Assembly: GCF_008000775.2 (NCBI RefSeq)
Contig: NZ_CP042905.2
Span: 1,740,001-1,772,000 of the forward strand
Direction of reading: 5' to 3'
Source of the DNA: Promethearchaeum syntrophicum
GTDB taxonomy: Archaea; Asgardarchaeota; Lokiarchaeia; Sigyniarchaeales; Promethearchaeaceae
Length of the DNA stretch: 32,000 nucleotides
In this document: positions 1,471 through 24,394 of the stretch, one piece after another
Numbering within the stretch: position 1 is the first letter of the stretch
How the letters are laid out: each line of letters starts with the position of its first letter
The notes under the pieces: generated by a model
The model's input: the letters and a program-made list of their open reading frames with translations, nothing else
The model's database searches: none
Told to the model about the DNA's origin: nothing
Translations under genes and position numbers: made by a program

Positions 1471-1479
1471 TTATAAATA
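1471..1479 (+). promoter_or_regulatory. TATA box for the 1499-5467 gene cluster
   Basis: TTATAAATA is centred ~24 nt upstream of ATG 1499, which is leaderless-type spacing. Confidence 0.45.
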
Positions 1480-1498
1480 CCAACTAACTAACATTTCC

Positions 1499-1810
1499 AT
1501 GGAATCCACTTTACGATCCCAAACCGTCCCTATCAACCCGCGTGAAATTAAAAAACATTCCGTTCTTTCTCAGAAATGCCCCATTTGTAAGCAAGAAATA
1601 TCATTTGGCGTCGAACACGGGTTTTTAGAGAAAGTCGAACGATATCCTTATCCTCATGTGATTTTACATGGGGATCCGCTTCATGCACTTATAGTCTATA
1701 TTGATGCGGATTTTCTGATTCGGGGGGCGGACACGGCGCGAAGTATTGAAATTCACCGCAATAGCAATACTTTTTCGCAGATCATTAAGAAGTGGAGTAA
1801 TCCATATTAA
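1499..1810 (+). CDS. Hypothetical protein with one CPxC motif and a His-rich segment
   Basis: 103-aa ORF directly behind the TATA box. It contains CPICKQ and YPYPHVILHGDPLHALIVYID. No family recognised. Confidence 0.6.
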   Translation: MESTLRSQTVPINPREIKKHSVLSQKCPICKQEISFGVEHGFLEKVERYPYPHVILHGDPLHALIVYIDADFLIRGADTARSIEIHRNSNTFSQIIKKWSNPY

Positions 1811-1835
1811 TCAAATAAAAAAGGAGAAAAAACCT

Positions 1836-2054
1836 ATGGCAACCCAAACCCAAACCCAAGTTCGAAATCACGATTCGAATCGAAAATTTGTTCGGTGTGC
1901 AATGTGTGAAAACGAAGCAACTCAACAACATTTTGTGGATGCGGCAGGCGGAATCTTGTGTGTGTGTGATAATTGTAATTTCATTTTAGAACTCAAAGAT
2001 CGCATTGCAGACCTCGAAGCCGAACTTGCTCTGTATAAAACTGAGGGAAATTAG
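1836..2054 (+). CDS. Small Cys-rich (zinc-binding) protein with a C-terminal coiled-coil segment
   Basis: ATG 1836 is preceded by AAGGAG at 1821-1826. It contains CAMCEN...CVCDNC and LELKDRIADLEAELALYK. The listed start at 1746 overlaps the upstream gene and lacks an RBS. Confidence 0.6.
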   Translation: MATQTQTQVRNHDSNRKFVRCAMCENEATQQHFVDAAGGILCVCDNCNFILELKDRIADLEAELALYKTEGN

Positions 2055-2396
2055 ATGTATAGTCAAATGAGTATCGGAGAATGTCCCGAGTGCGGGGATG
2101 AACTCTATCTTTTTAAGACCAAATCGCATAAAAAGGTCGCCAAATGTATGAATGATGATTGCCCAAAGCAGTTAGCCTACGGCGTTCCAAAACGGGGAAA
2201 AATTGAGGTAACGGGATTGAAATGTCCAAAAAATCATCTTCCTGTGCTGGCAATTATTCCCAATATCCGATTAACCCAAGGAAAATATAAGCAGAACACT
2301 AAAGGGATTTATTTCTGGACCAACTCTCCGTGTTTTACTTGTCGGGAACAGAACAGCTGTGACATTAGGAAAGAAGCCCAAGAAGATTATGAATAA
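2055..2396 (+). CDS. Zinc-ribbon protein, topoisomerase-type C4 finger-like, probably two ribbons
   Basis: The ATG directly abuts the upstream stop (2052-2054). CPECGDELYLFKTKSHKKVAKCMNDDCPKQ fits the CxxC...C..(C) pattern of topoisomerase DNA-binding Zn ribbons. A second Cys cluster is CFTCREQNSC. Confidence 0.6.
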   Translation: MYSQMSIGECPECGDELYLFKTKSHKKVAKCMNDDCPKQLAYGVPKRGKIEVTGLKCPKNHLPVLAIIPNIRLTQGKYKQNTKGIYFWTNSPCFTCREQNSCDIRKEAQEDYE

Positions 2397-2408
2397 CCGG
2401 GATGACCA

Positions 2409-2969
2409 ATGAGCCACAACTATGACGGATCGCTGTCGGGGGGCGATTATGGTTTTTTCTATCAATACACCCGCTTTTTGGATTACATTCATAATAATCA
2501 AGACCTCAAACCCTTTAATTTTAGGAAAGTAGCAAGTGATCTCTCTCTATCTGAAGATCAGGTGTTATTCTTTTTTCAACAATTAAAAATCTCGTTCAAA
2601 ATTTTCCTTGATTCCCAACAGAAATTGCAAGAGAAGATCATCAATAAAATGAATACTATCTATTTTCAATCGCTCAAACAAGATGAACATATCGAAATTT
2701 CAGAGTCGGATATGAATACTTTTGCGGATTTTCATTATTTATCATCGATTAAAGCTTGGACCAAAAACATTATTGAAAAACATCCTGATATACAATCCTT
2801 ATATGACTCCTATCCCGCACTTTTTGAAGAAATTAATAATAATAAATGGATAGCTTCGGAATCAGGAGCATATTTTTCCAATGAATGGAAGAATTTTGCT
2901 ATGTTAAACCAAGTTCCCGATATTTTGGAATTTAATAATTTGAAGTTGAAAGTGAAAAACGAGAAATAA
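2409..2969 (+). CDS. Hypothetical protein (186 aa)
   Basis: ORF lies 12 nt after the previous stop on the same strand. No motif recognised. Confidence 0.55.
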   Translation: MSHNYDGSLSGGDYGFFYQYTRFLDYIHNNQDLKPFNFRKVASDLSLSEDQVLFFFQQLKISFKIFLDSQQKLQEKIINKMNTIYFQSLKQDEHIEISESDMNTFADFHYLSSIKAWTKNIIEKHPDIQSLYDSYPALFEEINNNKWIASESGAYFSNEWKNFAMLNQVPDILEFNNLKLKVKNEK

Positions 2970-3052
2970 ACCTTATTAAGACCTTCGTTCAAATAAAATA
3001 CAAAGTGTTTAGAGATAAAACACGTCGTTAAAAAAAAGGGAAAATCAACAAG

Positions 3053-5467
3053 ATGAAAGATATAAAAGGAACACTTTCAATTTCAGATTTATTTCGCACG
3101 AGTAACAACTATACTTTTCTCATCGGGGCAGGAGCGTCAATGGAATCTCCTTCTAACTTACCGTCTGCGAGGGAAATAGTAAAAACGATTGTCGAATTAT
3201 GCACCCCTGACGAATATATTGAGTCTATTTTATCACTACCATCCCTTAAATATGAGATTTTGATTGAGAATATTAACAATATTAGCAGAATCGATCCCAA
3301 AGTGGAATTTTTGGATTATTTTGACAATAATATTAGCCCAAATTTAATCCATATGTTTATTGCTCAGCTGGTAATTAATGGAAGAGGACGACACCACATA
3401 ATTACAACGAATTTTGATTATCTCATAGAACATGCTTTTTCTAATGTGTTACCTGACAATGAGAAAGAAAACATTATTCCAATCATCACAAAATCTGATT
3501 TTTCTACCTTTGAAAATATTGATGATTTATATAAATCGGGAAAATTTCCCATTTGTAAAATTCACGGTTCAAAGAAGAATATAATAACCCAAACAAATAC
3601 ATCAGATTCATTAATAACGGATATTACTTCCTTCGGAAAGAACAGATCAGAGGGTGAAACATTCGCCATTGAACCGTTTAAAAAACCTTTAGTAAATAAT
3701 TTAATGAAAGGGCAAACTCTTGTGGTAATGGGATATTCAGGAGGGGATGATTTTGATATTAGCCCTATGTTACGGGAATTAGAGGAATTGAAACAGATTA
3801 TATGGATCCAACATTCTTCTTCAAAACATCCTGAAATTATCCCTATTTCAAAAAACCAAGATTTTCGGTTGATCAAGAATAAAAATCTAAATTCAGAGCA
3901 ATTAGTGATGGAACTCAGTGATCTCAGAGGATACGATAACTATATAATAAAAATAAATACCTTGCAATTAGTAGAAGTATATTTGGATGCCCTTTTGCTA
4001 AAGGGGAAATTAAAGAAAAAAAGCATTTTGAAAAATCAATACACAAGTAATTTTGAACAATGGCTTGGAAATAATGCAGTGTATAAAAGTATCATAATTT
4101 ATGAAAAATATTATTTTGCTGGAAATATATTATCCGATTTAGGTGAAATGGAAAAGGGGTTATCAAGCTATAAAAAAGGGCTTCTTTTAACACCCAAATC
4201 AAACCAAAAGGAAATATCTCTTTTCCTTAATAATATAGGGACGTTCTATAAGGCAAGGGGCGAATATGAAAATGCATTGAAGAATTACCATGAAGTTCTG
4301 AAAATTGACGAGCAACTCGGCGATCTACAGGGAAAAGCAACTGCTCTTAATAATATTGGGTCGATCTACTACGCACAAGGCGATTATGAAAATGCACTGA
4401 ATAATTACCAGGAAGCCTTGAAAATTGACGAACACCTCGGCGACCTACAGGGAAAAGCAACTGATCTTAATAATATCGGGATGATCTACAAAGCACAAGG
4501 CGATTATGAAAATGCACTGACAAATTACCACGAAGCAATCAAAATTGCCGAACACCTCGGCGACCTACACGGAAAAGCAGCAAGACTTAATAATATCGGT
4601 ATAATCTACGATGCTAAAGGCGATTATGAAAATGCATTGAAAAATTACAACGAAGCACTCAAAATTGCCGAACACCTCAGCGACCTACAGGGAAAAGCAA
4701 CAAGACTTAATAATATCGGGATGATCTACAACGATAAAGGCGATTATGAAAATGCACTGAATAATTACCACGAAGCCCTCAAAATTGACGAACACCTCGG
4801 CAACCTAAAGGGAAAAGCAACTGATCTTAATAATATTGGGTCGATCTACTACGCACAAGGCGATTATGAAAATGCACTGAATAATTACCACGAAGCACTC
4901 AAAATTGCCGAACGACTCGGCGACCTAAAGGGAAAAGCAGCTACTCTTAATAATATCGGGATGATTTACGATGCACAAGGCGATTATGAAAATGCACTGA
5001 CAAATTACGACGAAGCACTCAAAATTGCCAACCAGCTCGGCGACCTACAGGGAAAAGCAACAAGACTTAATAATATTGGGTCGATCTACTACACACAGGG
5101 TGATTATGAAAATGCACTGACAAATTACCACGAAGTACTCAAAATTGCCGAACAACTCGGCGACCTACAGGGAAAAGCAACAAGACTTAATAATATCGGT
5201 ATGATCTACAAAGCACAAGGCGATTATGAAAATGCACTGACAAATTCCCACGAAGCACTCAAAATTGCCGAACAACTCGGCGACCTAAAGGGAAAAGCAA
5301 CTGATCTTAATAATATTGGGTCGATCTACTACGCACAAGGCGATTATGAAAATGCACTGACAAATTTGGACCGAGTCCTTGAAATCTATAAAAAAATAAA
5401 CCTACCTAATTACATAAAGCAAACTCAAGATAATATTGAAATCGTGAAAAAGCGGATGCGAATGTAA
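3053..5467 (+). CDS. SIR2-like (SIR2_2 type) domain protein fused to a ten-unit TPR array
   Basis: The N-terminus has FLIGAGASMESPSNLPSAREI, IITTNFDYLIEHA, CKIHGS and LVVMGYSGGDDFDI (Rossmann Gly loop, catalytic Asn/Asp and His positions of SIR2). The C-terminal half is 10 x 40-aa kinesin-light-chain-type TPRs (NNIGxIYxAQGDYENALxNYxEALKI...). No GK[ST] P-loop is seen between the domains. Confidence 0.85.
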   Translation: MKDIKGTLSISDLFRTSNNYTFLIGAGASMESPSNLPSAREIVKTIVELCTPDEYIESILSLPSLKYEILIENINNISRIDPKVEFLDYFDNNISPNLIHMFIAQLVINGRGRHHIITTNFDYLIEHAFSNVLPDNEKENIIPIITKSDFSTFENIDDLYKSGKFPICKIHGSKKNIITQTNTSDSLITDITSFGKNRSEGETFAIEPFKKPLVNNLMKGQTLVVMGYSGGDDFDISPMLRELEELKQIIWIQHSSSKHPEIIPISKNQDFRLIKNKNLNSEQLVMELSDLRGYDNYIIKINTLQLVEVYLDALLLKGKLKKKSILKNQYTSNFEQWLGNNAVYKSIIIYEKYYFAGNILSDLGEMEKGLSSYKKGLLLTPKSNQKEISLFLNNIGTFYKARGEYENALKNYHEVLKIDEQLGDLQGKATALNNIGSIYYAQGDYENALNNYQEALKIDEHLGDLQGKATDLNNIGMIYKAQGDYENALTNYHEAIKIAEHLGDLHGKAARLNNIGIIYDAKGDYENALKNYNEALKIAEHLSDLQGKATRLNNIGMIYNDKGDYENALNNYHEALKIDEHLGNLKGKATDLNNIGSIYYAQGDYENALNNYHEALKIAERLGDLKGKAATLNNIGMIYDAQGDYENALTNYDEALKIANQLGDLQGKATRLNNIGSIYYTQGDYENALTNYHEVLKIAEQLGDLQGKATRLNNIGMIYKAQGDYENALTNSHEALKIAEQLGDLKGKATDLNNIGSIYYAQGDYENALTNLDRVLEIYKKINLPNYIKQTQDNIEIVKKRMRM
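4229..5428 (+). repeat. Ten in-frame tandem 120-bp units (40-aa TPR units); the last unit degenerates
   Basis: GGCGATTATGAAAATGCACTGA recurs every 120 nt, at 4380, 4500 and so on up to 5340. Unit 2 (4349-4468) and unit 6 (4829-4948) share their first 62 nt exactly and 109/120 nt overall by hand count. Confidence 0.95.
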
Positions 5468-5557
5468 TTGTTTCTATAGGTTAATTGAATGAGAATTGGT
5501 ATAATTTTGCTGTGAGTGAGGGTTTTTAAATCCTCAAACGATTTTACATTGCGACTT

Positions 5558-5564
5558 AAAAAAA
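5558..5564 (-). terminator. T7 tract downstream of the GTPase gene
   Basis: A7 on the + strand (T7 on the - strand) lies 10 nt past the stop at 5575-5577. Confidence 0.3.
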
Positions 5565-5574
5565 TTTTAGTTCA

Positions 5575-6183
5575 TTAAATCAGTTTCTGCCTCAATATTT
5601 TCTGTATCATATCAATAAAAATTCTCTTAACATTTCTTAATTCACTTCTATCAATTGCTACCGCAGGATATACTATTCTAAATCCGAGAGCATCTTTATG
5701 AGCAAGAGGTAATCGCATAATCCTTCGAAACCGATCTTCTTTAACCACATCGGGAAGATCCCTTTTGTTTAATTGAATAAGAATTGGAATATTATCCCGA
5801 TGAATAAACGATTTGAGTTCCTCGAATGATCTGAGGTTGTTATCCATTTTATCCAACGAAGAATCCGCCACAAAAATCACCCCATCGGCATTTTGGAGAA
5901 CATATTCTCTTGTAGATAAAAATCGTTCCTGACCTGTAGTGGTCGCCACATTCACAATCACATCCAAGTTGAACGACGCCAACGAAAACTTAAAATGGAC
6001 CGAATCATTCCACAACGTTCTCTCATCGGTTGTAGCAATCGAAAAGCCATGGCTAATTTTGTAAGGGGCAAAGATTTCTTGCAGTCGTTCAAAATTGGTG
6101 GTTTTTCCTGCCTCGCCACAGCCCCAATACATAATTTTGAGTTGCATGAGTTTGGTTTTCGGAAGGGCTTTAGTCGAAATCAT
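5575..6183 (-). CDS. mglA: MglA-like small Ras-superfamily GTPase
   Basis: G1 is GCGEAGKTT. G3 is TTTGQE, with Thr replacing the usual Asp as in MglA TVPGQ. G4 is NKRD. The DGVIFVADSS and QLNKRDLP blocks resemble Myxococcus MglA as I recall it. The listed start 6204 is TTG; ATG 6183 or ATG 6147 (MQLKIMYWG...) is more plausible. Confidence 0.85.
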   Translation of the reverse strand: MISTKALPKTKLMQLKIMYWGCGEAGKTTNFERLQEIFAPYKISHGFSIATTDERTLWNDSVHFKFSLASFNLDVIVNVATTTGQERFLSTREYVLQNADGVIFVADSSLDKMDNNLRSFEELKSFIHRDNIPILIQLNKRDLPDVVKEDRFRRIMRLPLAHKDALGFRIVYPAVAIDRSELRNVKRIFIDMIQKILRQKLI

Positions 6184-6718
6184 CGTCAATCCCCCCCAGC
6201 ACAAATAGTTCGCGCTTCATTTGATTAATATGGCTCAAAAACTCGGCTTCGGACATTTTCATGGTTTTATTCATGTCAATATCCTGTTTTATCTTTTCCT
6301 TAATCCCGGCGGATGCTCTTTGCATTAACATCACAATAAGACCGATATTTATCTTGTTTTTCCCAATAACTATCAAGACAATTTCTTTAGGAAAAGGTTG
6401 CACATCCACATAACCAATCGAATGCACGAAGAACTTTTTATCATCAAAAATCAGAGTAGCGCGTTTTAGGTCACTGGCGGAAAAGAAATCCCGAGCTTGT
6501 TTTCCTATACCATACAGTGCTGCCCCAATTGCCCCGACATCCCAATAATTGATATCTGTGTCAAAAAAGGTATTGGTGGCAAGAACTTTGGCATCGGAGT
6601 CGGTGATCACCAACCCCATGAGTGAAGAAGTGTGTGAAAGTTGCCCGTATTTGAGTCTGATATCATCCAAGATTTTAGCAAGACCATTGCCTCTGATCTG
6701 ATCAGGAACTGTTTTCAT
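6170..6718 (-). CDS. mglB: Roadblock/LC7 domain protein (MglB-like) with a C-terminal extension
   Basis: LMGLVITDSDAKVLATN...GAIGAALYGIGKQARDFF...ATLIFDDKKFFVHSIG fits the Roadblock/LC7 pattern. It lies immediately upstream of the GTPase on the same strand. Confidence 0.7.
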   Translation of the reverse strand: MKTVPDQIRGNGLAKILDDIRLKYGQLSHTSSLMGLVITDSDAKVLATNTFFDTDINYWDVGAIGAALYGIGKQARDFFSASDLKRATLIFDDKKFFVHSIGYVDVQPFPKEIVLIVIGKNKINIGLIVMLMQRASAGIKEKIKQDIDMNKTMKMSEAEFLSHINQMKRELFVLGGIDDDFD

Positions 6719-6739
6719 GAAAAATTAGGACAATGGAAG

Positions 6740-6748
6740 TTTATAAAA
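6740..6748 (-). promoter_or_regulatory. TATA box for the Roadblock-GTPase bicistron
   Basis: The minus strand reads GCTTTTATAAAC, centred ~26 nt upstream of ATG 6718. Confidence 0.45.
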
Positions 6749-6750
6749 GC

Positions 6751-6760
6751 AAAAAAAAAA
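6751..6760 (-). terminator. T10 tract immediately after the 499-aa gene
   Basis: A10 on the + strand (T10 on the - strand) directly abuts the stop codon at 6761-6763. Confidence 0.45.
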
Positions 6761-8260
6761 TTAATCTTGGAATAATTTAAAGATTTTATTTTGGGAATCT
6801 CTCGTTCTGGCTCTCAACGATGTAATTAATTCAGGATTGAAGTCTCTTTCCCCATATTCTTTCTTTAGTGCGGTTAGTTTTTTTTGATATTCTCGATGGA
6901 AATTTCTGATTTCGGGGGATTTGGATTCATGGGCAAACATTTTTTCAAATTCTTTGGGAGACACAGATTGAGGCTTCTTTTCCACAGGTAAAATATGCGA
7001 CACCATCGGTTCTTTTTTGAGATGGGATCGTATGATTTCATCCTCCGCATATTGAAATAAATCCATTGTCTTGAATTCGGGAGACGCAAACATCGAGCAA
7101 ATATCAATAATTTGGGCATGTTTATCCAGTAAGTACTGCCCGATTTGAGATTTGGTTATATTTGCACTTTTGATTTCTTCCCTGATATAATATAAAAATA
7201 ACTTTTGGAAGAATTCCATCGGGATTTCGGTTTGCCATTGGTGGGTTCTGAGATAACAATATTTTTTTTCAGGAGTAGAAAAGGTATCGTGGGTAGGAAT
7301 GGTAATATCTCTTAATGAAAAGGAAAAGGCGTTAAACGTACTATCATTACTTAACAACCCCCATATTTCCTCATTGATTTGATCCTCTTTGTATATTTCA
7401 ATTTCTTCGATAATTGAGTCTTTTTTAATGATTGTGGATTCTATGGGTTCTTGTTGAAATGATACTTCATTTTTCTCTTGGTCTTTCGATTCAATTATAT
7501 GATTTTTTTCCTCTCTTTTTTCCTCTTGTGCTGGTTCTTCGGGATTTTTTGGCAAACTGCTGGGTTTTATGGTTTTTTTTGTATATTCGGGCAATTTTAC
7601 ATTATAATATTTCTCACAAATAGCACATATAGCCTTTTGTTCAAAAGTGGTCAAATCTTTACAGAAATCTTGATAATCTTTTTTTTGTATTCCGGGCAAG
7701 ATTTGAAACAAATCTCCTACTTTCTCCTCAATGGATGATAAATATTCCTTGAGGGCAAAAATCCCATCCGTTTTGAGCCTCGAAATAAGAGTGTCTTTTA
7801 TCCATTTATATGCTAAGGAATTAGCAGAGATTAACGATTTTGGGGTTAACTGCGAAATTTTTTTAATTTTTTTGTTAAACACCGCTATCTGCTGAAAATC
7901 GGAATAATCGATCTTTTGATCTTTTTCTAGCGCAAGAAATAAAATCTCAGGATATTTGATCACTTCATTCATTGATGCTTGAGATACATTCTTGAGGAGA
8001 AGGATCGATTTTTTTTCGCCGTCATCATACTGACTGAAATATCCTTCGAGATGCGCTGGATTGGTGATGTTATTCATATCGATTTCTTCGATAATATAAA
8101 ACACTCGCAATAATTCGAAGAGGCCATCCAATTTAGCACTATATTCGAAAGGGCGAATTACCACACTGCATCCTTTAATTAAAAGTAAATAGAGCAGTTT
8201 TTGGTGCACATAATCATAATTAAGTTCGGTTGAAGATTCCATCATCATTAGTAGTTCCAC
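6761..8260 (-). CDS. Hypothetical protein (499 aa) with an acidic central linker
   Basis: Long ORF with no family recognised. The central stretch is Glu/Lys-rich (PEEPAQEEKREEKNH...). The likely true start is ATG 8248, which sits 26 nt below a TATA box; the listed start 8260 is GTG. Confidence 0.7.
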   Translation of the reverse strand: MELLMMMESSTELNYDYVHQKLLYLLLIKGCSVVIRPFEYSAKLDGLFELLRVFYIIEEIDMNNITNPAHLEGYFSQYDDGEKKSILLLKNVSQASMNEVIKYPEILFLALEKDQKIDYSDFQQIAVFNKKIKKISQLTPKSLISANSLAYKWIKDTLISRLKTDGIFALKEYLSSIEEKVGDLFQILPGIQKKDYQDFCKDLTTFEQKAICAICEKYYNVKLPEYTKKTIKPSSLPKNPEEPAQEEKREEKNHIIESKDQEKNEVSFQQEPIESTIIKKDSIIEEIEIYKEDQINEEIWGLLSNDSTFNAFSFSLRDITIPTHDTFSTPEKKYCYLRTHQWQTEIPMEFFQKLFLYYIREEIKSANITKSQIGQYLLDKHAQIIDICSMFASPEFKTMDLFQYAEDEIIRSHLKKEPMVSHILPVEKKPQSVSPKEFEKMFAHESKSPEIRNFHREYQKKLTALKKEYGERDFNPELITSLRARTRDSQNKIFKLFQD

Positions 8261-8268
8261 CTGGCGGG

Positions 8269-23389: not shown

Positions 23390-24394
23390 ATGATGAACAT
23401 ATATCTGGAAAAAAAACTAGTATACGGAAACCGAGCATCTATTAAATTGTGGAATTTTAATAATGACAATATCGTTGATTATTTTAAGAATAGATTTAGT
23501 TCATATCTGTCTGAATTGGGATTATCTTGGCATCCTTTTATACATCCAGAAAACCATATTGCAGTAAAAAATGTACAAACTAAAAAGAACGATTTCTTTA
23601 TTGATATCAACCACAGTTGTTGTGAAGGCGAAGAATGGCGTTATCTAAATTTTGATATGAATCACCTTATATTTTTTGATATATCAGATAAAGAAAAAGA
23701 ATTCAGAGTTCTAAATCAGTTTAATGAAAGAATTAAACCAAAAAACAAGTCTAATGAAATACTTAACATAGATGAAACCAATACAGAGTTTTTCCTCAAT
23801 CCATCGTTCGTTCTTATCTTATATGATTCGACAAATGAATCAGGAAATTATCACCTACCTGAATCCTATTCACTTTACATTCCATCATATTCTGATTTAA
23901 ATATTATTGGACAAAAACACTTTGATATCCAAGGTTTTTATGACTGGCTTTACAAATCCACTTTTAGAAAGACCAGGGGTGTAATACAAGAAAGAAATCC
24001 TAAAGTTTTAAAAATGTTTAAAGATTTTCATGATAAATCTCCTGCTAAAGATATAAATATTATTGTAGCTCACATTGCTAGATATAAAACTGATAATATG
24101 GAAAATATTAACGATAAATCACGATTATCTCAGATTTTGAATCATTTTTCACAGAGTGAACTGAAAAAAATGGGAGAAGAATTACAATTAACAAAAATTC
24201 CGATGAGAAAGAAACAATTAATAAAATCTCTTGTCGATTTATCAGATCAACCTAATAATAGAGACAACATTATGAAAATTTGCATGAGTTGTTTGCAAAA
24301 GGAAGCCCAAATTCTTAAATCAAGCAAAAAAATGAAAGAATTTGTATCTCAATTTGAAAATATGCTTGGTGTTAAAAATCTAAAGAAAAAATAA
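23390..24394 (+). CDS. Hypothetical protein (334 aa) in a very AT-rich islet
   Basis: The ORF listed from GTG 23339 has an in-frame ATG-ATG at 23390 at leaderless distance from the TATA box. No family recognised. Confidence 0.55.
   Translation: MMNIYLEKKLVYGNRASIKLWNFNNDNIVDYFKNRFSSYLSELGLSWHPFIHPENHIAVKNVQTKKNDFFIDINHSCCEGEEWRYLNFDMNHLIFFDISDKEKEFRVLNQFNERIKPKNKSNEILNIDETNTEFFLNPSFVLILYDSTNESGNYHLPESYSLYIPSYSDLNIIGQKHFDIQGFYDWLYKSTFRKTRGVIQERNPKVLKMFKDFHDKSPAKDINIIVAHIARYKTDNMENINDKSRLSQILNHFSQSELKKMGEELQLTKIPMRKKQLIKSLVDLSDQPNNRDNIMKICMSCLQKEAQILKSSKKMKEFVSQFENMLGVKNLKKK

Follow-up and report, generated by a model that had tools for sequence, protein, structure and literature searches.

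A candidate NTPase-less SIR2-TPR sensor-effector of Promethearchaeum syntrophicum, carried in a variable genomic slot beside an independent cluster of four small genes

Depletion of nicotinamide adenine dinucleotide (NAD+) by the SIR2-domain proteins ThsA, DSR1/DSR2, SIR2-HerA and SPARSA is reportedly established, and DSR1 and DSR2 are said to act as defence-associated sirtuins. Here we describe a gene of related plan from Promethearchaeum syntrophicum MK-D1, which codes for an 804-residue protein with an N-terminal SIR2 domain and a C-terminal array of tetratricopeptide repeats (TPR), and which we refer to as the SIR2-TPR gene. It lies at positions 3053-5467 (+ strand) of the window, a stretch of 32,000 nucleotides of contig NZ_CP042905.2 (positions 1,740,001 to 1,772,000) to which all unprefixed positions refer, and is the last of five open reading frames (ORFs), all on the + strand, that span 1499-5467 with gaps of 25, 0, 12 and 83 nt. 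The initial annotation had taken these five ORFs, preceded by a TATA box, for a compact operon and a candidate NAD-targeting conflict module in which the SIR2-TPR protein combines effector and sensor without an NTPase switch. The coordinates of the ORFs, the gaps and the TATA box were verified. The operon reading has to be divided: the effector-plus-sensor plan without an NTPase is found family-wide, whereas the five-gene system is contradicted by the lack of co-occurrence in 85 homologue loci and by conservation of the small-gene cluster where SIR2-TPR is absent. The reading that we hold as probable, though far from secure, is that two evolutionarily independent units, the cluster at 1470-2969 and the SIR2-TPR gene at 3053-5467, are neighbours in this strain, and that the SIR2-TPR protein is a sensor-effector.

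The nearest analogues in working logic are DSR1/DSR2. Like the SIR2-TPR protein they are single polypeptides in which an N-terminal immune-type SIR2 NADase domain is joined to a large C-terminal helical-repeat sensor, and like it they have neither an NTPase nor an obligatory partner gene, the single-gene status of SIR2-TPR following from the absence of any conserved neighbour. The sensors differ, in that the one of DSR2 is a HEAT-like C-terminal domain whereas that of SIR2-TPR is a TPR_12-type array of near-identical 40-residue units, and no DSR1/DSR2 profile appeared among the PADLOC matches at E <= 0.1. A further difference is that the SIR2-TPR family is archaeal (Asgard), has several paralogues per genome, and has an NADase activity that is predicted and a ligand that is putative.

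The SIR2-STAND protein EfAvs5 (Avs5; PDB 9jap) shares with SIR2-TPR the structural class of the SIR2 effector (Foldseek E = 3.2e-6) as well as a C-terminal repeat sensor, but neither the window protein nor any paralogue examined has the central STAND NTPase (NACHT or NB-ARC) by which that family is defined. The best sequence-profile match of the SIR2 domain is to the Sir2-APAZ subunit of SPARSA, a short prokaryotic Argonaute (pAgo) system (PDB 8jkz, 8in8; E = 1.8e-5), and the best specific PADLOC match is Aga_SIR2, a model of pAgo-associated SIR2 that aligns with the SIR2 part only (query residues 94-254). SPARSA combines APAZ with an adjacent short Argonaute, whereas the C-terminus of SIR2-TPR is a TPR array with no APAZ, and no Pfam match to Argonaute was obtained among the window ORFs scanned. 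Thoeris ThsA, SIR2-HerA and KomC of the Kongming system also share the SIR2 fold class (Foldseek E values of 1e-6 to 2e-5) but differ in that SIR2-TPR has no fused SLOG or Macro domain and no adjacent gene for TIR, HerA or KomA/B; a TIR domain was not found in any of the neighbouring ORFs scanned against Pfam. PADLOC recognised no named system here, returning partial SIR2 and TPR matches only. We see in SIR2-TPR an uncharacterised form of a familiar protein type, not a novel system.

Two further groups of SIR2 proteins frame the comparison. The proteins termed SIRim are reported to have seven or more β-strands and in eukaryotes to be fused to TPR-like (PF14938) and NACHT domains, in the preprint that defined this subfamily (bioRxiv 10.1101/2024.09.18.613514); the eight strands in the SIR2 sheet of our AlphaFold model fit this description. 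Eukaryotic SIRim proteins fall in the same immune-type subfamily, with a match to the filament of FAM118B (FAM118B/SIRanc) at E = 3.7e-4, and PF14938 also matches the SIR2-TPR protein, whereas all sequence relatives of SIR2-TPR that were found are Asgard. The sirtuin deacylases (CobB/Sir2Tm) share with SIR2-TPR the Rossmann fold of the superfamily and the positions of the Gly-loop, Asn and His. The NCBIfam deacylase models, however, score only 23-26 bits against cutoffs of 221-243 (221 for NF001752), about one tenth of the cutoff, nor does SIR2-TPR have the sirtuins' four-cysteine zinc-binding module, there being no CxxC...CxxC pattern in residues 30-115.

The domain assignments made in the initial annotation for the SIR2-TPR protein are borne out by profile searches. 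Pfam SIR2_2 (PF13289) covers residues 115-247 with 45.8 bits, above its cutoff of 24.5 (E = 8.5e-12), and the SIR2 domain as a whole, predicted to be of the immune (SIRim) type, comprises residues 1-316 (3053-4000, + strand) with the motifs GAGAS at residues 25-29, TTNFD at 118-122 (N120 and D122) and KIHGS at 169-173 (H171). The ten TPR units, each of 40 residues, run from residue 391 to 790 (4223-5422, + strand) and form a candidate ligand-binding sensor; TPR_12 matches with E = 1e-80 and PF14938 with E = 4.6e-18, and at the DNA level the array consists of 9.5 copies of a 120-bp unit (86% matches). Neither GK[ST] nor GxxxxGK[ST] was found in the protein by motif search, and Pfam returned no NTPase domain, as had been claimed. 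The AlphaFold model of the full protein is of high confidence (pLDDT 91.8, pTM 0.83). It corrects one detail, the presumed linker of about 120 residues between the two domains, which is modelled instead as the C-terminal part of the SIR2 fold with helical caps: residues 246-301 contribute extra β-strands that continue the Rossmann sheet and are followed by capping helices leading into the TPR array. A cryptic NTPase in residues 255-385 was considered and rejected on the basis of the structure model together with the motif and Pfam searches.

In order to place the SIR2 domain, its separate model (pLDDT 85.8) was compared with the PDB by Foldseek. The top 17 matches were all immune-type SIR2 structures, among them SIR2-HerA (8.9e-7), KomC, the SIR2-STAND protein EfAvs5, ThsA, SPARSA Sir2-APAZ and human FAM118B, and sirtuin deacylases appeared only at E >= 0.018. 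The PDB search with a sequence profile of the SIR2 family gave SPARSA Sir2 and, at 1e-3, KomC, and in the profile alignment the TTNFD and GAGxS motifs of the family pair with those of SPARSA Sir2. A phmmer search of the SIR2 core against PDB sequences returned noise only, and H171 has no residue-level alignment to a solved NADase. By sequence and model alike, the SIR2 domain is assigned to the immune structural class, with its predicted NAD-site residues intact. The TPR array, in turn, can be overlaid on LGN/Pins, whose peptide-binding TPR domain it resembles in fold. Among the repeat units the ratio of nonsynonymous to synonymous variation (pN/pS) is 0.51 overall, 0.20 outside the variable positions and 0.91 at positions that were picked for their variability. 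The near-identical units, the repeat number that varies between paralogues and the LGN-like fold indicate that the array is sensor-like.

The same plan is found throughout a large family. For the SIR2 region, 80 homologous proteins were found, and wherever their source is named it is an Asgard genome or metagenome-assembled genome (MAG); a profile scan of species-representative genomes yielded 264 encoded relatives, nearly all of them Asgard, whereas a scan of genome contigs with the single SIR2-domain sequence gave no match, that stretch perhaps being masked in them. The members come from Promethearchaeota and from MAGs labelled Hermod-, Hod-, Sigyn-, Hel- and Odinarchaeota. Residues G25, A26, G27, S29, N120, D122, H171, GYSG at 227-230 and D235 are invariant in alignments of 23 and of 30 sequences, and 81 of 83 genomic homologues keep all three catalytic motifs. 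Protein length ranges from 598 to about 1,900 residues, and the number of repeats varies widely among paralogues; in six long paralogues (1,053-1,888 residues) the extra length consists of TPR repeats only, SIR2_2 scoring above the E-value cut in five of the six and Pfam giving no NTPase domain in any. Walker A patterns occur across the family as sporadic, non-conserved matches only. As judged from these sequences, the family plan throughout is a putatively immune-type SIR2 domain at the N-terminus that passes directly into a TPR solenoid, the length of which varies, and an NTPase is lacking. A neighbour-joining tree contains many deep paralogue clades, and some single genomes have at least two or three members. 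One member is on a contig labelled 'Candidatus Nanopelagicaceae bacterium' (L074, DATKTW010000104.1) but pairs most closely in the tree with a Promethearchaeota contig (L076); it is probably from a mis-binned contig rather than a bacterial homologue. The family is thus essentially confined to Asgard archaea; it is missing from the PADLOC models, no description of it was found in the literature searched, and the Asgard and archaeal defence surveys among that literature do not mention SIR2.

The relation of the SIR2-TPR gene to the four small genes upstream was examined from both sides. For the SIR2-TPR side, 80 loci were fetched of the 264 genome relatives and five further contigs were added, giving 85 homologue loci (1.27 Mb). 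When these were searched by tblastn with ORF1-4, none of the 85 had an adjacent relative; the sole match was a weak ORF1-like sequence about 10 kb away on the opposite strand (L026). The test named in advance for the five-gene reading, conservation of that neighbourhood around SIR2-TPR homologues, accordingly found it at no locus. The three homologues closest to the SIR2-TPR protein of the window (70%, 64% and 55% identity) are each coded in a different genomic context. The idea that other family members have small zinc-ribbon genes of unrelated sequence beside them was also rejected, as the small ORFs 5' of the homologues in L003 and L004 have no cysteine motifs.

For the small-gene side, the cluster occurs with no SIR2-TPR gene in four congeneric contigs (L086, L088, L089 and L109), and in three of these (L086, L088, L089) the order ORF1-ORF2-ORF3-ORF4 is kept at 66-88% identity. 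Nucleotide alignment to L109 places the breakpoints: window 2130-2944 corresponds to L109 1-802 and window 5584-7282 to L109 995-2705, with about 190 bp between them in L109, so that the segment 2945-5583 of the window (breakpoints 2944/2945 and 5583/5584; no strand is assigned) is a strain-specific insert between ORF4 and the gene for an Arf-like GTPase. The genes for this GTPase, a roadblock-like protein and a protein of about 460-500 residues, together with a 411-residue gene in matching position, follow ORF4 in L109 as they follow SIR2-TPR in the window. The GTPase flank is 84-90% identical in L086 and L109, and homology to L086 and L088 ends where homology to L109 ends, other genes being present there. 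Since the cluster exists free of SIR2-TPR and the same flanks enclose different contents, 2945-5583 is an insertion into a variable slot. The SIR2-TPR gene is thus cargo specific to this strain, placed in a slot that is prone to recombination; the cluster of four small genes is older and independent of it.

Within the genus Promethearchaeum this slot is a hotspot of cargo exchange. L109 has it empty (803-994), L086 (10123-13668) has two unrelated genes of 242 residues there, and L088 (10562-12039) a PLDc_2 nuclease-like gene with weak DrmC/NucT-like matches. In L086 the cargo is flanked by duplicated 3'-end fragments of ORF4 and of the GTPase gene, which suggests exchange of cargo by recombination at the conserved flanks. 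A comparable scar stands at the edge of the window insert, right after the SIR2-TPR stop codon and beside the intact GTPase gene: a degenerate GTPase-gene fragment (residues 120-149) at 5470-5559 on the - strand (tblastn, 50% identity over 30 residues, E = 4e-5). The intact Arf/Ras-like small GTPase gene (5575-6204, - strand; Pfam Arf, E = 3e-8) forms the conserved right flank and lies outside the feature proper. Scans of viral contigs with ORF4, the ORF3 family and the SIR2 family gave no relatives, tblastn against phage genomes gave none, and PHROG matches were negligible, so a viral or proviral origin is not supported. The slot offers a natural experiment on the swapping of cargo genes in Asgard genomes.

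How the SIR2-TPR protein would work can be proposed by analogy with DSR1/DSR2, ligand-switched hydrolysis of NAD+ being the most likely mechanism. The groove of the TPR array would take up a protein or peptide as its ligand (a viral or stress-derived protein, for instance); this would relieve autoinhibition of the SIR2 domains, or drive their oligomerisation, or both; and the activated SIR2 domains would then hydrolyse NAD+ and arrest the cell. For the oligomerisation step the hint comes from the PDB titles of the Foldseek neighbours, several of which describe filaments or large oligomers. Sensing and execution would reside in one protein, as in DSR1/DSR2, and the products of ORF1-4 would not be required. 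P. syntrophicum MK-D1 is one of very few cultured Asgard archaea, so the SIR2-TPR gene is open to study in its native host.

Several observations weigh against a role in defence. Next to the 85 homologues lie mostly genes of metabolism or housekeeping (such as those for NadB, low-molecular-weight (LMW) phosphatase, methyltransferases and aldolases), and no recognisable defence hallmark is found among their most frequent neighbour families; the window copy's own slot, however, in one congener holds the PLD/DrmC-like nuclease gene. The variation among repeats carries no clear sign of positive selection, given the overall pN/pS cited above. A further observation is a clade of 23 loci coding for proteins of about 803 residues, in which nadB lies 85-132 nt downstream on the same strand in 21 (for example L007:9962-14052; the clade is a subset of L006-L043). 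NadB catalyses the first step of de novo NAD+ synthesis, and the assignment of these downstream genes rests on a match to NF006567 (L-aspartate oxidase) with 696 bits against a cutoff of 629. A divergent LMW phosphatase is coded upstream, and a Macro-domain (ADP-ribose-binding) protein nearby at 13 loci. This clade is fixed in position, with a median identity of 69% for SIR2 against 76% for NadB, which is unusual for defence genes. It links a putatively NAD-consuming domain with genes for NAD synthesis and ADP-ribose handling, a pattern in keeping, at least in this clade, with a stable function of the cell's own in the biology of NAD or ADP-ribose, and a non-defence function therefore stays in play for the family.

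Extended to the window protein, this would make SIR2-TPR a housekeeping or regulatory NAD-dependent enzyme, whether a deacylase, an ADP-ribosyltransferase or a controlled consumer of NAD+, whose TPR array recruits cellular substrates or partners. We regard this as possible without favouring it. Besides the nadB, phosphatase and Macro-domain neighbours and the generally metabolic surroundings, it gains from the spread of the family across Asgard lineages with strongly conserved sequence, and from an ADP-ribosylglycohydrolase gene in L001, at a distance of 3.7 kb from the homologue with 55% identity. It is opposed by fold and profile matches that point to immune NADases and not to sirtuin deacylases, by deacylase scores far below cutoffs that all exceed 220 bits, by the missing zinc module, and by the presence in each genome of several divergent paralogues with very variable repeat arrays. 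The window copy, moreover, falls outside the nadB-linked clade in the tree and is a strain-specific insert, its slot being taken by a PLD nuclease gene in a congener. Because it lies outside that clade and behaves as variable cargo, we rate the conflict reading somewhat higher for the window gene. Should a role in NAD homeostasis, as hinted by the nadB clade, prove true, an 'immune-type' SIR2 would be found in housekeeping service. A bolder form of the sensor-effector reading, which we think rather unlikely, is that the Asgard SIR2-TPR proteins make up, in the archaea most closely related to eukaryotes, an undescribed repertoire of NTPase-less innate-immune receptors, the TPR array of each paralogue being directed at a different invader protein and triggering NAD+ depletion, while the nadB-fixed clade would couple NAD+ destruction to resynthesis; the family might then be kin of the eukaryotic SIRim-TPR fusions. 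If true, this would add an NAD-depleting arm to Asgard immunity and would bear on the origin of eukaryotic SIR2-type immune proteins.

The setting of the gene in a slot of fast turnover, marked by gene-fragment scars, raises the question of whether it is a decaying or functionless passenger that was brought in by recombination and is now unused, and the exact 804-residue sequence was indeed not found in the public gene-call collection. Yet the frame of 804 codons is intact and retains all of the catalytic and structural residues that are invariant in the family, the structure model is very confident, and the repeats are under strong purifying selection outside their variable positions, so that we judge a passenger improbable. 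The original proposal of a co-expressed five-gene conflict module, with the small zinc-ribbon proteins as sensors or regulators and SIR2-TPR as the executor, is the least credible of the alternatives, and we consider it very improbable. It draws on the shared strand and the short gaps, and on the 83-nt gap between ORF4 and SIR2-TPR, which contains no oligo-T terminator so that read-through co-transcription in MK-D1 is possible. The absence of co-occurrence at all 85 loci speaks against it, as do the four congeneric contigs that keep the cluster with no SIR2-TPR (one with an empty slot), the separate conserved partners of ORF1 and ORF3 elsewhere, and the small genes 5' of other family members, which do not code for zinc ribbons. 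Co-transcription in MK-D1, if present, would be an accident of the insertion site and not a conserved system. With the five-gene arrangement put down to insertion, the candidate that remains, and the core of the sensor-effector reading that we prefer, is a single-gene immune-type SIR2 wired to a TPR sensor.

The small-gene cluster begins with the TATA-like element at 1471-1479 (TTATAAATA; as 1470-1479, ATTATAAATA) on the + strand, about 20-28 nt 5' of the ATG of ORF1. It occurs equally far from the ORF1 ATG in two congeneric contigs, L086 and L088, and this conservation of position exceeds what AT-richness alone explains. A scan for bacterial sigma-70 promoters and intrinsic terminators was discarded as not meaningful in an archaeon, its terminator-like matches being the TPR repeat read on the minus strand. 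The four small proteins, all coded on the + strand, are as initially described. ORF1 (DSAG12_02147; 1499-1810), the first gene, codes for a CPxC/His-rich protein of 103 residues that is 100% identical to a P. syntrophicum protein and has homologues at 48-81% identity (67-74% in L086, L088 and L089). ORF2 (1836-2054; 72 residues) combines a CxxC...CxCxxC zinc ribbon with a coiled-coil-like tail; its family matches in Pfam and NCBIfam are sub-threshold only, and it is 66-71% identical in L086, L088 and L089, with a second copy at 41% in L086. The ORF listing offers a longer ORF2 with a TTG start at 1746, but the ATG at 1836 is favoured because homologues called in related contigs are 70-73 residues long.

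ORF3 (2055-2396; 113 residues) is a double zinc ribbon whose first ribbon is of the topoisomerase-I type, residues 6-68 matching NF005555 (topoisomerase I) weakly at E = 6.3e-6; it is 88% identical in congeners. It has 34 representative relatives in a wider family of proteins of about 100-135 residues with eight conserved cysteines, of which C10, C13, C31, C36, C57, C96 and C102 are invariant and C93 nearly so. An alignment of 20 ORF3 sequences was too diverse for a pattern scan, and a six-sequence version was used instead; it retrieved mostly topoisomerase-type ribbons of halophile metagenomes, with full-length matches only in L090 and L091. ORF4 (DSAG12_02150; 2409-2969; 186 residues), the last gene of the cluster, has no recognisable domain, with no match in Pfam, NCBIfam, PADLOC or PHROG, and is likewise 100% identical to a P. 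syntrophicum protein. Its family is restricted to the genus, since all 19 homologues are at least 72% identical. A second P. syntrophicum paralogue of ORF4 (P0082, UniProt A0A5B9DFB2; 184 residues) is 83% identical, so the cluster is duplicated, at least partly, elsewhere in that genome.

Gene partners of ORF1 and ORF3 in other contigs offer a hint of function. On L091 (4470-5172), a high-GC and evidently non-Asgard metagenomic contig, an ORF3-like double zinc ribbon is followed immediately by an ORF1-like gene (42% over 86 residues), so the pairing of ORF1 with ORF3 reaches well beyond the genus. In two contigs from other Promethearchaeota (L106:4480-7492 and L108:2053-2670), ORF1 homologues of 45-48% identity lie 12-70 nt 5' of a gene for a Hel308/Ski2-like DEAD-box helicase on the same strand. 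These partners suggest a nucleic-acid-related role for the small-gene cluster.

The window further encodes a FEN1-type nuclease besides the Arf-like GTPase and the roadblock-like protein, and many of its ORFs have no Pfam match; the locus tags of the window genes are not mentioned in the literature searched. The left side of the small-gene cluster is also variable. The interval between the FEN1 gene and ORF1 (1087-1498) corresponds in L088 (2206-9083) to about 6-7 kb of extra genes, including a leucine-rich-repeat protein, DUF8156 and several unknowns, which are absent from the window, and L086 has a similar gene set 5' of ORF1 (~2400-8268). Within this interval the window codes on the - strand (1113-1286) for a 57-residue zinc-ribbon ORF with counterparts 43-59% identical in L086 and L088, and on the + strand (1262-1411) it has an open frame with no ATG that ends in a CxxC...CxxC peptide (…CVKCGHKNTVTDRFCKNCGREINESPD, followed by the stop codon). 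No convincing counterpart of the latter frame was found in the congeneric contigs L086-L089 and L109, and it may be a relic. At 23399-24199, 20 kb from ORF1-4, the window contains a gene with 81% nucleotide identity, in inverted orientation, to the gene at the left end of L086 (9-797), which points to rearrangement between the congeners.

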